Below are positions 22,187 through 28,845 of a stretch of DNA of 32,000 nt, piece by piece. Under the pieces are notes generated by a model. The model saw nothing but the letters and a program-made list of their open reading frames with translations, did no database searches and was not told the DNA's origin. The translations under genes were made by a program, and so were the position numbers. The stretch comes from Gloeothece verrucosa PCC 7822 (lineage in GTDB: Bacteria; Cyanobacteriota; Cyanobacteriia; Cyanobacteriales; Microcystaceae): NCBI RefSeq assembly GCF_000147335.1, contig NC_014501.1:2322300-2354299 (forward strand). The letters run 5' to 3'. The number at the start of each line of letters is the position of its first letter. The first letter of the stretch is position 1.

Positions 22187-25015
22187 TTGCTGCATGAAGA
22201 TTTACAGCGAGGTAATTATGTTGCCATAACAGGAATGGGAGGAGTGGGTAAAACCGAGTTAGCTAGTCAATATATTCACCGCTATGGAGAAGCTTATGAG
22301 GGCATTACTTGGTTTAATGATAGACAAAAAGGTCTAGCGGCAGAGGTTTTAGAGTATTTTTCTTTGCAGTTAAATTATGAGATTCCCCAACAGTTAAGGG
22401 GAAAACGGTTAACGCTTTCTGAACAAGTGCGGGAGTGTTGGGGTCAATATGCGGCTTCTGAATTGCCTATATTACTGGTTTTTGATGATGTTACTAATTT
22501 AGATAATCTTCGGGAGGTTGTGCCGAGTGAAAACCGTTTCCGAGTTTTGGTGACGACTCGATTACAATATTTAGACCCGAATTTTATTAGTGAGGTGGGT
22601 TTAGAGGTTCTCTCCCCAGAATATGAACCGGGGAAGGCGTTAGAACTGTTACAAGCTTTGTTAGGTAAGAAAGATAGGCGCATTTATAGGGAACCCGAAG
22701 CGGCGGCAGATATTTGTCGGTGTTTGGAGTATTTGCCTTTGGGGATAATTTTAGTGGGGGGTTATTTGGTACAAGACCCGGATTTATCTTTAGAGATGAT
22801 GCTAGGGCAGTTGCAGGAGAGAAAGTTAGCAGAAAAATCGTTACAGGTAAGGGAAAGTCTTAACCAGTATCAAAGGGGTGTTAGGGCGGCTTTTGCTTTA
22901 ACTTGGGAAGAACTCGATCCTTTGTCTCAGCAAGTGGGAATGTTCCTTAGTTTATTCTCTCCTAAGTTGATTATTTGGGATTTGGTGGTGTGGGTTGCGC
23001 TTAGAAAGTGGCACGAAGAGATCGCAAATGAAGAGGAAACAGAGGTTAATGCTGAACTCGACTCCTCCGGAGAAGTAAAAAAAGAAGATAATTATTTAAG
23101 TTGGTCGAAGTATGAGTTAAACGAGGGGAAAAAGCGACTCTATCAACGAAATTTGCTACAACGGAAAGAAGAGAGAGAAGGATCTTATAAAATTCATGCT
23201 TTGGTGCGGTGGTTTTTACAGGAAAAGTTAGAGGAGTCAGAGGAGATAAAGGGCGTTTTCAGACAAACTTTCGCCATCGCTATGATAAGCGTCGCTAAAA
23301 TTATTCCTGACTCACCCACCTCTAAAGATATTGAAGATGTTAAAGATTTTATTCCCCATATAGAAGCACTAACAGAAAGTTTAATTGAAGAAGCAAAGGA
23401 AAAAAGAGAAGAAAAGAGAATAACTTTAGCATCAGTGCCCGATGAGTCGCTTATCTGGCCTTTTCTGGGAGTAGGAAGGTTTTATCAAGGTCAGGGGTTG
23501 TACTCTTTAGCAGAACCTTGGTATAAACCTTGTCTCGATGTGCTTAAAAGTCACTTTGGAGAAGAACATCCTGATGTAGCAAGCAGTTTGAACAATTTAG
23601 CGGCACTCTACTCTTCAATGGGGCGCTACAGCGAAGCCGAACCTCTGTACCAACAAGCTTTGGAGATCAATGAGCGGCTGTTGGGGACGGAGCATCCTGA
23701 TCTGGCAAGCAGTTTGAACAATTTAGCGGCACTCTACTCTTCAATGGGGCGCTACAGCGAAGCCGAACCTCTGTACCAACAAGCTTTGGAGATCAATGAG
23801 CGGCTGTTGGGGACGGAGCATCCTGATCTGGCAACCAGTTTGAACAATTTAGCGGCACTCTACTCTTCAATGGGGCGCTACAGCGAAGCCGAACCTCTGT
23901 ACCAACAAGCTTTGGAGATCAATGAGCGGCTGTTGGGGACGGAGCATCCTGATCTGGCAACCAGTTTGAACAATTTAGCGGGACTCTACTCTTCAATGGG
24001 GCGCTACAGCGAAGCCGAACCTCTGTACCAACAAGCTTTGGAGATGAGAGAGCGGCTGTTGGGGACGGAGCATCCTTCTGTGGCAACCAGTTTGAACAAT
24101 TTAGCGGGACTCTACTCTTCAATGGGGCGCTACAGCGAAGCCGAACCTCTTTACCAACAAGCTTTGGAGATCAATGAGCGGCTGTTGGGGACGGAGCATC
24201 CTTCTGTGGCAACCAGTTTGAACAATTTAGCAGGACTCTACAAGGCAATGGGGCGCTACAGCGAAGCCGAACCTCTGTACCAACAAGCTTTGGAGATGAG
24301 AGAGCGGCTGTTGGGGACGGAGCATCCTGATCTGGCAAGCAGTTTGAACAATTTAGCAGGACTCTACAAGGCAATGGGGCGCTACAGCGAAGCCGAACCT
24401 CTGTACCAACAAGCTTTGGAGATCAATGAGCGGCTGTTGGGGACGGAGCATCCTGATCTGGCAACCAGTTTGAACAATTTAGCGGGACTCTACGATTCAA
24501 TGGGGCGCTACAGCGAAGCCGAACCTCTGTACCAACAAGCTTTGGAGATCAATGAGCGGCTGTTGGGGACGGAGCATCCTGATCTGGCAACCAGTTTGAA
24601 CAATTTAGCGGGACTCTACGATTCAATGGGGCGCTACAGCGAAGCCGAACCTCTGTACCAACAAGCTTGGGAGATGAGAGAGCGGCTGTTGGGGACGGAG
24701 CATCCTGATGTAGCAAGCAGTTTGAACAATTTAGCAGGACTCTACTCTTCAATGGGGCGCTACAGCGAAGCCGAAACTCTGTACCAACAAGCTTTAGCCA
24801 TACTCGAACCCATCTTAGGGCCTAATCATCCTTCTACCATAACAGTTCGAGAAAATCTTGTCTTGCTGTCACAGCAACGTACTCGCCGCTACCTCTGGAG
24901 TCGTCGCTTAATTAAGCTTGTGGAATTTTTGTTAGCAATTGTGTGTTTACCGTTTTATTTGCTGTGGTTGCTGTTTAAGCAGTTGTTTAGTTTCTTCTTC
25001 CGTCGCTTGCGGTGA
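22187..25015 (+). CDS. NB-ARC (STAND) ATPase with TPR array and C-terminal TM helix (NLR-like); 5' boundary unresolved, frame open from 22088
   Basis: FVGREKEL (upstream of the listed TTG start), Walker A [11 protein letters not shown], Walker B [15 protein letters not shown], GLPL-like [16 protein letters not shown]. Then 10 full and 2 degenerate 42-aa TPR_12-type units ([42 protein letters not shown]). Terminal hydrophobic helix: [20 protein letters not shown]. Confidence 0.85.
   Translation: [942 protein letters not shown]
23564..24823 (+). repeat. 126-bp x10 near-identical tandem repeat (coding, TPR units)
   Basis: Unit starts (GAxCATCCT) fall at 23564, 23690, 23816, 23942, 24068, 24194, 24320, 24446, 24572 and 24698, an exact 126-bp period. 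A degenerate capping unit starts at 24824. Confidence 0.95.
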
Positions 25016-25491: not shown

Positions 25492-26469
25492 ATGATTCAA
25501 TTAAATTACGCAATAACCTTATTTTTAAGCTTATTACTGACTTCTCTCCCCTTCTTATTGTTGGGTATATTCGTTTCTAGTTGGTTACTGGTGTTTGTGG
25601 ATGAGCATCAACTAGCCGCTAAATTCCCTCATAACCCCATCTTAGGGGCTATCCTCGGCAGTAGTCTAGGGATGATTATCCCTGTCTGTCAATATGGCAA
25701 TATCCCAGTCACCAGACGTTTATTAATGCAGGGCGCTCCTCTATCGGTGGCCATCAGTTTTTTGCTGGCTTCTCCTACCGTAAATCCTATTGTGCTTTGG
25801 TTGACCTGGCAAGCTTTTCCCGATTACGCCAGCATCTTATTCTACCGCCTCTTATTGGCTTGGATAATCGCTTTTATAATTGGTTTAATCTTTAGCACTT
25901 ACAGAGAAAAACCCGCATCTGCTGAGGAATTGGCTTCTCCTCGTTGCTATTTACTGCCTTCAGGAACCTTTTTACGCCCCTCCGATGAAAGTGAACCCCT
26001 ACACCGCATCGGGAATTTAGTTTATGAGTACAAAACTACCGCCACTTTTAGAAAATCTTTAAAAATTAGCTTAAGTCTCTTCTGGCAAAATGTGGTTAAA
26101 GAAACCCTTGAGTTAGGAGGCATCTTAATGGTTGGATGTGCTATAGCGGCTTTAGCACAGATGTTTCTTCCTCAAGGTCAAATGCTAACTTGGGCACAAG
26201 CGCCTGTGGTCCAGATCTCTGTTATGATTTTATTAGGGGTGATATTATCCCTCGGCTCACCGAATAGTGCCGCGTTTCTAAGCTTTTTCGCTCCAACGTT
26301 TCTCAAAGGATCGCTGTTGAGTTTCTTGCTGTTTAGTTCAGTTGTAGACCTCAAAAGCGTGTGCCTATTATTTTTTGTGTTGCGATTTAAAGCCGCTCTT
26401 TATTTGATAATTTTAGTCCTAGAATTGACGATTTTATCAGCTTTAATCCTCAATTTTTACCCGAGTTAG
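25492..26469 (+). CDS. predicted permease (UPF0718 / ArsP_1-type family)
   Basis: Polytopic membrane protein. GAILGSSLGMIIPVCQYGNIPVTRRLLMQGAPLSVAISFLLASPTVNPIVL resembles the G.llP.CsC..vP....L...Ga....a.aFl.a.P.iNp core of this permease family. Confidence 0.65.
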   Translation: MIQLNYAITLFLSLLLTSLPFLLLGIFVSSWLLVFVDEHQLAAKFPHNPILGAILGSSLGMIIPVCQYGNIPVTRRLLMQGAPLSVAISFLLASPTVNPIVLWLTWQAFPDYASILFYRLLLAWIIAFIIGLIFSTYREKPASAEELASPRCYLLPSGTFLRPSDESEPLHRIGNLVYEYKTTATFRKSLKISLSLFWQNVVKETLELGGILMVGCAIAALAQMFLPQGQMLTWAQAPVVQISVMILLGVILSLGSPNSAAFLSFFAPTFLKGSLLSFLLFSSVVDLKSVCLLFFVLRFKAALYLIILVLELTILSALILNFYPS

Positions 26470-26595
26470 TAAGATCAAAGACGGATATTTCTCAAGGGTA
26501 TCCGTAAAATTTCCTATTTTTGTTGGCTAATTATCTTGATCCCTAAATGTAAAGTTTATTTACAACCTGAGAAAAGGTTCCCTCATCAATGCTAA

Positions 26596-26852
26596 ATTAA
26601 TAATTGAAGCTAGATAAGCTTCCCTGGCAGAATAGCTTGCAAGGTAAATTCATAAAACCCAAAGGAGAAAAACCTGTTAAAGTTAACATCTGTCTCGTTC
26701 ACCCAAAATAACAGCAATCAACTTGAATCATCATATTTCCTAAAGTGAAAGAAGGGAGCAAAACACCTGAAGAGTAATTTTCAGAGGACTCCAAGAAAAA
26801 TCAACTTAAAAAAGGAAATCCCTGGTCTTTAATGCTTGATTGCTGTTATTGT
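26596..26852 (+). ncRNA. candidate structured RNA, copy 1 (unknown family)
   Basis: Three nested helices. P1 is 26707-26721 with 26836-26850 (15 bp). P2 is 26745-26751 with 26813-26819. P3 is the hairpin 26767-26784 with a GUAA loop. There is also a 5' hairpin at 26606-22. Compensatory and wobble changes relative to copy 2 support folding on the + strand. Confidence 0.4.
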
Positions 26853-26918
26853 TATAAAAACCCAAAAAGATGTAAAGTTTAATTGCAAAATATGCTTGGG
26901 TTGAAAAAAAAATGTTAG

Positions 26919-27178
26919 ATTAATAATTGAAGCTAGATAAGCTTCCCTGGCAGAATAGCTTGCAAGGTAAATTAATAAAACCAAAAGGAGAAAACCCTGT
27001 TAAAGTTAACATCTGTCTCGTTCATCCCAAATAACAGTAATCAACTTGAATCATCATATTTCCTCAAGTGAAAAAAAGAGAGCAAAGCATTTGAAGGATA
27101 ATCTTCAGAGCGACTCCGAGAAGACTCAACTATTAAAGAGGAAATCACTGGTTGTTAATGCTTGATTGCTGTTATTGT
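26919..27178 (+). ncRNA. candidate structured RNA, copy 2 (unknown family)
   Basis: P1 is 27030-27044 with 27162-27176 (one G-U). P2 is 27058-27065 with 27138-27145 (8 bp). P3 is 27091-27108. Confidence 0.4.
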
Positions 27179-27439
27179 CATTTAATAACTCTTTTTAAAA
27201 GTATTCAAATCCTCAAATAAGCCTGACCTAAGACTCCGAAACGCCATAAGTATTTAAACTCAAAGTTTTTTCACCAGATAAAGCCAAAAAAAATCTAAAA
27301 TAGATCTAGTAGTGGTTTGAGTGACGTGACCGAATCATCAATCAGAACGATGTGCCGGGAAAGGTTTCAAACTTGAGGAAGAAATAAACCAGCCGCGTAC
27401 TATTCCTGATGAAGATGTATTGAAGCAATAATTTGTTTA

Positions 27440-27475
27440 ACATTTAAAATTGAAACACAAGTTCATTTTAAATGT
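27440..27475. promoter_or_regulatory. perfect 11-bp inverted repeat with 14-nt spacer upstream of the DHH gene (operator or RNA hairpin)
   Basis: ACATTTAAAAT (27440-27450), spacer tgaaacacaagttc, ATTTTAAATGT (27465-27475). It lies ~130 nt upstream of the ATG at 27607. Confidence 0.35.
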
Positions 27476-27606
27476 ACCTACCGACATATCAATAAAATTA
27501 ACTTATCGCCACCCCGGAAGAGAGTAAAAAGCTTTTCAGTTTCTCTTTACCGGTTTTAAGTGTTAATTGTATTATAGATCAACCCAATGATGGGTATTGT
27601 AAACAA

Positions 27607-28845
27607 ATGACATCAGAATTACTCAATTCAAGCAATTATAAAAATAAAGAGTCTGACGAAGAGACAAAACCGACCATCAGTAAATCTTCTAATGGAAACT
27701 CAGATCTAGGAGGAGATCCAGATGGTACAACTCGTTCCCTAGCCCAAATTATCCAGAAATTCCGCCAGACTTTAGAAAACCATCGCGGCGATCGCCAAAT
27801 CGTCGTCATTCAAGATTTCCCCGATCCTGATGCTTTAGCCAGTGCTTGGGCCTATCAACTCATTGCAGAACAATACCAAATCAATTGCGATATCGTATAT
27901 GCAGGCACCCTATCTCATCAAGAAAATATTGCTCTAGTAAAACTCACCGGACTACCGGCTAAACGTTGGGGAGTCTACACCCTCAAAGATAGAGACTTAT
28001 CGGTTTATTCGGGATGTGTCCTAATGGACAGTCAAGGAACCACCAGTCAGCTATTCCCCCTCATCCAACAGCATCACATTCCGATCGTAGTGGTGATCGA
28101 CCATCACAGCAAACAGGGAAACCTCGAAGCAGAATTTATTGATCTGCGTCCTCAAATTCGCGCAACCGCCACCATACTAGCCCAGTATATTCAACAAGGA
28201 GTAATAGAATTCAATAGTAATGATAATACTCATGTAAAATGTGCCACCGCCTTAATGCACGGCATCCGTTCAGATAGCAATAATTTGCTACAAGCGCAAG
28301 AAGCTGAATTTCTCGCCGCCGCCTATCTGAGCCGCTTTTATGATATACAGTTACTAAATGCTGTACTACAATCGGCTCGCTCTCGTCGAGTCATGGATAT
28401 TATCGAACGCTCTCTAAAAAACCGTCTGATTAAAAACAACTTCTCCATTGCCGGAGTCGGCTATCTACGTTATGATGACCGAGATGCCATTCCCCAAGCG
28501 GCTGATTTTCTCGTCACCGAAGAAAACATCCACACAGCCGTCGTTTATGGGATAGTTCATGACGAAGATGATGACATAGAATTGATTATCGGTTCCTTGA
28601 GAACCACAAAACTCACCTTAGACCCCGATGAATTTCTCAAAGAAGCCTTTGGCCATGATGGACAGGGACGTTACTTTGGGGGAGGGCGCTATATGGCCGG
28701 CGGGTTTGAAATACCCATTGGTTTCTTAGGTGGATTTAATGAAAACAATCAGTATACCAAACTGAAATGGGAAGTCTTTGATACTCAGATAAAACAAAAA
28801 CTACTCCGTTTAATTAATCCTGATAGTACCGTGATTCATACTTAA
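27607..28845 (+). CDS. DHH/DHHA1-family phosphoesterase (NrnA-like)
   Basis: Motifs: VVIQDFPDPDALAS (DxD), VLMDSQG, VVVIDHHS (DHH), and GGGRYMAGG (a variant of the DHHA1 GGGH motif). A ~50-aa low-complexity N-terminal extension is present. Confidence 0.8.
   Translation: MTSELLNSSNYKNKESDEETKPTISKSSNGNSDLGGDPDGTTRSLAQIIQKFRQTLENHRGDRQIVVIQDFPDPDALASAWAYQLIAEQYQINCDIVYAGTLSHQENIALVKLTGLPAKRWGVYTLKDRDLSVYSGCVLMDSQGTTSQLFPLIQQHHIPIVVVIDHHSKQGNLEAEFIDLRPQIRATATILAQYIQQGVIEFNSNDNTHVKCATALMHGIRSDSNNLLQAQEAEFLAAAYLSRFYDIQLLNAVLQSARSRRVMDIIERSLKNRLIKNNFSIAGVGYLRYDDRDAIPQAADFLVTEENIHTAVVYGIVHDEDDDIELIIGSLRTTKLTLDPDEFLKEAFGHDGQGRYFGGGRYMAGGFEIPIGFLGGFNENNQYTKLKWEVFDTQIKQKLLRLINPDSTVIHT

Follow-up and report, generated by a model that had tools for sequence, protein, structure and literature searches.

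A Tandem Pair of Probable PmgR1 (Ncr0700)-Family Small RNA Genes in Gloeothece verrucosa PCC 7822

The Locus

Between the gene for an ArsP-type permease and a DHH/DHHA1 gene, Gloeothece verrucosa PCC 7822 has a noncoding gap of 1.1 kb that holds two head-to-tail units. The permease encoded in the window is 100% identical to the G. verrucosa PCC 7822 protein. All positions given here without a contig name are those of the 32-kb window, by which we mean the whole stretch of DNA that was analyzed, and the features on which the argument turns are set out below, with the helices named as in the later sections.

25492-26469: ArsP-type permease gene
26546-26852, + strand: unit 1 (copy 1)
26546-26563, + strand: copy 1, conserved upstream motif AATGTAAAGTTTATTTAC
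26590-26598, + strand: copy 1, putative extended -10 TGCTAAATT (TGnTAnnTT), predicted start ~26603-26607
26605-26852, + strand: copy 1, probable PmgR1-family sRNA of ~250 nt, homologous to ncr0700
26606-10/26618-22 (P0), 26626-31/26689-94 (Pa) and 26661-67 (Shine-Dalgarno [SD]-like AAAGGAG), + strand: copy 1, 5' domain
26708-21/26836-49 (P1), 26735-42/26812-19 (P2), 26755-58/26789-92 (P2b) and 26767-73/26778-84 (P3), + strand: copy 1, 3' domain
26869-27178, + strand: unit 2 (copy 2)
26869-26886, + strand: copy 2, conserved upstream motif GATGTAAAGTTTAATTGC
26913-26921, + strand: copy 2, putative extended -10 TGTTAGATT, predicted start ~26926-26930
26928-27178, + strand: copy 2, probable PmgR1-family sRNA
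26929-33/26941-45 (P0) and 26949-54/27012-17 (Pa), + strand: copy 2, 5' domain
27031-44/27162-75 (P1, with U·G), 27058-65/27138-45 (P2), 27079-82/27114-17 (P2b) and 27091-97/27102-08 (P3), + strand: copy 2, 3' domain
26588-26753 and 26911-27076: repeat D1 (166 nt, 94% identity, offset 323)
Repeat D2: 47 nt, 89% identity, offset 326
26597-26689, - strand: 30-codon ORF, with a twin at 26920-27012
~27514-27557, + strand: terminator-like hairpin, CCGGAAGAGAG...CTCTTTACCGG then TTTT
27546-27575: promoter-like TTTACC-N18-TATTAT
27607-28845: DHH/DHHA1 gene

The preliminary description of this region spoke of a tandem repeat with mosaic conservation, and repeats D1 and D2 and the pairwise alignment of the copies all agree with it: the copies are nearly identical in their 5' halves and have diverged further in their 3' halves, and identity between the whole units is ~85-90%. 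The repeat is not due to chance; a 23-mer from its core, expected 0 times, is present twice in the window. A profile of 77 homologs, described below, matches just two places in the 32 kb (nhmmer), namely copy 1 (E=1.8e-42) and copy 2 (E=6e-46), and a search for a third, degenerate copy between copy 2 and the DHH gene (27180-27606) found none. No tRNA or tmRNA genes were found. Elsewhere in the window, a 942-aa NB-ARC/TPR protein (22187-25015) has about ten near-identical 42-residue TPR repeats, and these account for a ladder of spurious antisense ORFs with a period of 126 nt.

Is the duplication an accident of one strain? The worry had been raised at the outset, and the sister species G. citriformis PCC 7424 removes it. 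There, the same order of genes (NB-ARC/TPR, permease, RNA, DHH, SixA-like phosphatase, and citrate synthase) surrounds two tandem copies at the same locus (E=2.7e-37 and 2.7e-19), and the duplication is therefore not strain-specific. Copies are more alike within a genome (85% and 74%) than across the two genomes (65-70%), which points to concerted evolution, and it is to copies evolving in concert that we ascribe the near-identical tract at 26596-26751. In PCC 7424, the P3 hairpin has an entirely different sequence.

Three Logan contigs (L001-L003, from SRR004561, SRR004562, and SRR9434948) carry an identical DHH gene; two of the three start within copy 2, 663 nt ahead of the gene, and the third starts beyond copy 2, 229 nt ahead of it. 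Many homologs in draft genomes are likewise located at contig ends. The tandem repeat, it appears, fragments assemblies.

A Reading Frame That Does Not Last

The 30-codon ORFs on the minus strand do exist, in both copies and where the preliminary description had placed them, and they had suggested that the locus might be a duplicated type I toxin-antitoxin module, with the 30-aa peptide as toxin and the overlapping + strand RNA as antitoxin. The likeness to such loci consists of a small ORF, an overlapping structured RNA, and a tandem duplication, together with the fact that the ORF differs between copies by conservative changes only. That last observation, however, is uninformative, because the DNA there is nearly identical in any case, and the ORF belongs to this genome only. 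Neither it nor a 35-codon ORF on the plus strand is present in either PCC 7424 copy; the homolog on a Nostoc plasmid is without it; 60 of the 77 homologs have no comparable ORF; the few ORFs found in other homologs are unrelated in frame and sequence; and the minus side has no conserved promoter. None of the features that would place the locus among type I modules was found. With the ORFs missing from the sister species and from most homologs, we therefore reject the toxin-antitoxin reading, which has become scarcely credible, and we judge the 30-codon ORF to be a chance reading frame inside an RNA gene.

An RNA of Two Domains

The three helices first described (P1, P2, and P3) hold in both copies, with the substitutions that had been listed for them. 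P1 is a perfect inverted repeat of 15 bp (26707-21 with 26836-50), whose 5' arm in copy 2, AATAACAGTAATCAA, gives a U·G wobble; P2 (ATTTCCT/AGGAAAT) has A·A at its inner end in copy 1 and C-G in copy 2; and P3 reads CTGAAGA-GTAA-TTTTCAG in copy 1 and TTGAAGG-ATAA-TCTTCAG in copy 2. Compared with shuffled sequences, the + strand folds better (z=-3.1) and the - strand does not (z=-0.44).

What does the family as a whole say? We built a structure alignment of 77 elements (A3), with nine helices taken from RNAalifold and from our own inspection. Covariation in A3 backs P1, P2, and P3 and brings in further helices, P0, Pa, Pb, and P2b. Standard pairs fill 95.4% of the cells over 50 pairs, against 36-46% when the partners are slid by 1-3 columns, and changes on both sides are seen at 20 pairs, in 145 cells; 0 of 500 shuffles reach any of these measures. 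The structural proposal had been staked on additional homologs keeping the helices, and they keep them. Covariation is clearest at P2b (columns 263/337; GC 47, AU 29), at Pb (118/167; CG 50, GU 18), and at several pairs of P1. A mutual-information scan that is blind to folding, run on 182 distinct sequences, puts pairs of P2b, Pb, P1, and P3 at the top and yields one extra pair adjoining P1 (CG 74, AU 68).

Wobble in the family alignment is one-sided, with 280 G·U against 46 A·C, and the RNA is therefore the + strand. The conserved promoter is on the + side only, and conservation ends abruptly after the 3' arm of P1 and a U run. The earlier proposal of a structured + strand RNA whose helices are under compensatory change is thus borne out across the family.

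The fold that emerges has two parts. In the 5' domain (P0, Pa, and Pb), an SD-like AAGGAGG is exposed in a loop, and AUCUGUCUCG is invariant; the 3' domain (P1, P2, P2b, and P3) is ~145 nt long and has the strongest covariation. The copy 1 RNA ends in UUGUUAU after P1, and this 3' end is without a canonical terminator hairpin, the "loop" of P1 being >100 nt. No members of the family are more divergent than the window copies, whose Pb register departs from the consensus.

The large loop of Pb carries the SD-like AAGAGGU/AAGGAGGU, which is nearly invariant (26660-26667 and 26983-26990; A3 columns 152-158) and complementary to the 3' end of 16S rRNA. No conserved ORF follows this loop among the homologs; a small one 3' of it had been a candidate, which we rejected when its frames proved to differ between clades.

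Extent of the Family

A plasmid collection returned one distant match, on a Nostoc plasmid, with the conserved blocks and with compensatory changes in P1, and a search pattern made from its conserved blocks seeded the family search. Among bacteria and archaea at one genome per species, the first pattern found 84 loci, all of them cyanobacterial, in Nostocales, Pleurocapsales, Chroococcidiopsidales, Coleofasciculus, Microcoleus, and others. In metagenomes, a second pattern yielded at least 120 loci, and the full element was recognized by profile in all of those listed. Several genomes carry at least two copies of the RNA. Tandem pairs account for 2 of the 84 genome loci and, among the matches listed, for 5 of the 120 metagenome loci. 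A phage collection gave no match to the RNA family, and viral contigs, scanned twice, yielded nothing beyond chance matches.

The preliminary description had proposed a scan of Rfam. In Rfam 15, at the gathering threshold and at E<=10, neither the window nor 15 homologous loci matched any family, the best subthreshold match being preQ1-II, with 22 bits against a threshold of 47. A literature search by sequence string returned nothing relevant, and a 2026 survey covering 202 cyanobacterial genomes makes no mention of the RNA in its text.

One set of loci stands apart. Nostoc sp. NMS4, Nostoc sp. ChiVER01, Scytonema hofmanni UTEX 2349, and a fourth locus (L090) have in common a near-identical stretch of ~300 nt (L023:2385-2686, L058:6096-6397, L077:3994-4295, and L090:5446-5729) that carries just a 66-nt core of the RNA, from the 3' strand of Pa to the 5' strand of P2, with unrelated flanks. 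It adjoins the end of a Macro-domain gene and, on the opposite strand, a gene of ~1000 aa, and it looks like a mobile or defense island that captured or disrupted a copy.

Might the whole family, then, be an element of DNA, for example a recombination site or a MITE bounded by 15-bp terminal inverted repeats? The arms of P1 do resemble terminal inverted repeats, and a fragment of the family does sit within mobile-looking sequence in four genomes. Against this, a wobble bias as strand-specific as 280 to 46 is not expected of DNA repeats, the internal helices covary, the synteny of the RNA locus is stable within clades, and the Synechocystis homolog, to which we now come, is an abundant transcript. 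We give the idea almost no credence.

Probable Identity with PmgR1

What, then, is this RNA? The literature pointed to a candidate, Ncr0700 or PmgR1, a widely conserved cyanobacterial sRNA of ~200 nt or more that has no Rfam model and was reportedly described in Synechocystis sp. PCC 6803 by de Porcellinis et al. in 2016 and Kopf et al. in 2014. We took the Synechocystis 6803 ncr0700 sequence, an entry of 276 nt, from supplement file 5 of a pooled CRISPRi paper (PMC7125299). The family HMM matches it over profile positions 55-155 with E=1.2e-15 and matches not one of 500 shuffles; window unit W1 aligns to it with a pairwise score of 40, shuffles scoring 21.9±3.0. By eye, ncr0700 has the P0 hairpin (GGAGCC-GAAG-GGCUUC, with compensatory changes relative to the family), followed by CUGGCAGA, AACAGCC, AGAGAGGUAAAAC, GCUGUU, AUCUGUCUCGU, and, as the 5' arm of P1, ACAACACCCAA. 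The -10 regions align, TAAATT in the window with TACATT in ncr0700, and sgRNA offsets put the start of ncr0700 at its first hairpin (GGAGCC), a few nucleotides from the predicted start (PMC7125299).

The profile match makes the window units homologs of PmgR1. The likeness takes in the homologous -10, a start at the first hairpin, P0/Pa/Pb, the AGAGGUAAAAC loop, and the AUCUGUCUCGU and ACAACACCCAA segments just named, and it extends to the character of the gene: a free-standing sRNA gene with a strong promoter, cyanobacteria-wide and not in Rfam. We hold with good confidence that the region consists of two tandem paralogous genes for PmgR1 (Ncr0700)-family sRNAs. The RNA family is, that is to say, already known; of the earlier proposal of a novel structured RNA, the lack of a match in Rfam stands, but the novelty does not survive homology to the published Ncr0700/PmgR1.

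There are differences. The window has two copies in tandem, and P2, P2b, P3, and the 3' arm of P1 are not alignable in the 276-nt Synechocystis entry, whose aligned part covers the 5' domain and the 5' arm of P1 and whose 3' half does not match the 3' domain of the family. One might argue from this that we are dealing with a separate and undescribed RNA family that has only an ancestral 5' module in common with PmgR1 and has some other function, for example binding a protein through its 3' domain; the alignment is indeed confined to HMM 55-155, the strongest covariation does lie in the 3' domain, and Rfam has no entry. We consider this unlikely. What the two have in common spans ~120 nt and takes in the -10, all the invariant blocks, and three helices. 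The 6803 ncr0700 locus has been rearranged by transposition and fused to ssr2227, which could account for the differing 3' part, and the ncr0700 of 6803 and that of strain 6714 overlap over only 195 nt (Kopf et al., PMC5386190). PmgR1 has, moreover, been reported to be cyanobacteria-wide, and a covariance model from its published alignment matches many genomes.

If the window units are PmgR1 genes, as we think, then much about their physiology may be borrowed from Synechocystis, where Ncr0700 has the strongest transcription start and is the most strongly transcribed sRNA. Its level peaks in darkness, is at its lowest in high light, and is also high upon heat shock and in stationary phase (PMC6596454, PMC4195498). 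Photomixotrophic growth and normal glycogen levels depend on this sRNA, downstream of PmgA (PMC8682795, PMC6596454, PMC4195498), and RNase E cleaves it (PMC8682795).

Promoter Architecture

Each unit carries the sequence of a promoter of its own. In the 77 homologs, TGnTAnnTT lies 7-8 nt upstream of P0, conserved as T 93%, G 92%, T 100%, A 100%, and then T 85% and T 100%. These conserved positions are the ones that define an extended -10 promoter. Farther upstream in the same 77 homologs, the block GTAAAGTTTAGTWTC has high information content and keeps a fixed spacing of 40-41 nt to the -10, and the sequence in between varies freely, including the 27-nt spacer between the two window copies; the upstream motif is kept from one window copy to the other although the spacer has diverged.

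In copy 1, the reverse complement of this motif, GTAAATAA-AC-TTTACATT, resembles an 8+2+8 direct repeat of the HLR1 type, and it is centered at -50.5 from the predicted start. HLR1, the site of RpaB, is (G/T)TTACA(T/A)(T/A)-N2-(G/T)TTACA(T/A)(T/A), and sites centered ~50 nt upstream of the start belong to the activating class, active in low light (PMC6525291). The HLR1 score averages 12.2 of 16 and is at least 12 in 61 of the 77 promoters, where the background chance of a score of at least 12 is 0.0023. The likeness is partial, the first half-site matching 4-5 of 8 positions in the window copies. To judge from the motif, RpaB, RpaA, or another regulator of the OmpR type probably binds the site, and an activating site of the HLR1 type would fit the light-inverse expression of Ncr0700. 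We also considered an NtcA site (GTA-N8-TAC) and set it aside: the third triplet is T-N-N and not TAC, and the center is near -50 and not at -41.5.

Two other cyanobacterial systems are worth comparing. PsrR1 and other sRNAs controlled by RpaB through HLR1 have the same sort of promoter, with an HLR1-type direct repeat, but PsrR1 is ~130 nt long, has an unrelated sequence, and is repressed by RpaB rather than activated, whereas the motif here is a partial HLR1 match. The NsiR1 array of Nostoc is also a series of head-to-tail sRNA genes with a promoter for each repeat. NsiR1, which goes back to Ionescu et al. in 2010, is reportedly ~60 nt long, present in ~12 copies, heterocyst-specific, and unrelated in sequence to the RNA here, which has two copies of ~250 nt each.

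Neighbors of the RNA

The units have the orientation of the DHH gene, and PCC 7424 has kept the arrangement; hence, the earlier suggestion that they are a tandem cis-regulatory leader or riboswitch for the DHH/DHHA1 phosphoesterase downstream. If so, one would like to see the DHH gene elsewhere beside the RNA, but it is a neighbor only in the two Gloeothece genomes among the ~200 loci listed. Neighbors vary. For the 201 loci listed, the nearest downstream gene (166 cases) is on the same strand 97 times and convergent 69 times (42%). A third relative (Logan SRR9418975, L219:1400-1703), with a permease 80% identical, keeps the order permease, DHH, phosphatase, and citrate synthase, with 300 nt from permease to DHH and no PmgR1 copy at the locus; the DHH gene therefore does not need the element. 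Nor is the RNA of the window next to it: ~430 nt separate copy 2 from the DHH gene, and that interval holds the terminator-like hairpin and, directly after it, the promoter-like site, ~30-90 nt upstream of the DHH start codon, a sequence arrangement that suggests that the DHH gene is transcribed from its own promoter and shielded from transcription coming from upstream. Each unit having a promoter besides, the idea of a cis-regulator is one that we abandon as very improbable.

The only frequent neighbor is a conserved 255-aa protein, encoded downstream of the RNA in 31 loci (L025:3423-4214, reoriented, and 30 others, with Nos7524_2057 at L214:3001-3771), on the same strand and 40-300 nt away, with 62-88% identity across orders; even this, the commonest downstream gene, is found in just those 31. 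The protein matched nothing in Pfam, NCBIfam, PADLOC, or the PDB, and its AlphaFold model (pLDDT 49) is too poor for a structure search. In Nostoc sp. PCC 7524, a textbook promoter, TTGACA-N16-TAAAAT, stands between the RNA and the gene. We dropped the protein as a clue to function, since in PCC 7524 it has a promoter of its own.

Discussion

How might such a locus work? We picture each unit as a transcription unit of its own on the + strand, in which an HLR1-like direct repeat at about -50 and an extended -10 would lead to a start just before the first hairpin and to an RNA of ~250 nt, which would end at the long-range helix P1 followed by a U run, where termination presumably occurs. The RNA would fold into two domains: P0, Pa, and Pb would make up the 5' one, in which an SD-like loop is exposed, and P1 would close the 3' one around P2, P2b, and the variable hairpin P3. 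By homology, it would act in trans and not on the adjacent DHH gene, and the two copies would evolve in concert. We infer both transcription in PCC 7822 and a physiological role there from the family to which the units belong.

A more speculative thought concerns the one PmgR1 whose function has been studied. The 6803 RNA might be a chimera, truncated at its 3' end by transposition, so that the PmgR1 on which the experiments have been done would lack half of the ancestral molecule. In that case, the complete RNA would be no simple base-pairing sRNA but a structured one of two domains, with an exposed SD-like loop, a possible role in binding a protein or the ribosome, and an HLR1-like promoter of the RpaB/RpaA type. 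We offer this tentatively, as possible and rather doubtful.

What has been gained is, first of all, the removal of a false lead: there is no new riboswitch for a nanoRNA/cyclic-dinucleotide phosphoesterase here, and no toxin-antitoxin module. In their place, detail has been added to PmgR1, a regulator that is known and yet mechanistically unexplained and that is without an Rfam model. Four things may be new, or are absent from Rfam and the literature examined: a covariation-backed two-domain model resting on ~180 sequences, the concerted evolution of tandem or multicopy genes, the possibility that the 6803 copy is atypical at its 3' end, and a conserved promoter architecture, which could account for the light-inverse expression of PmgR1.
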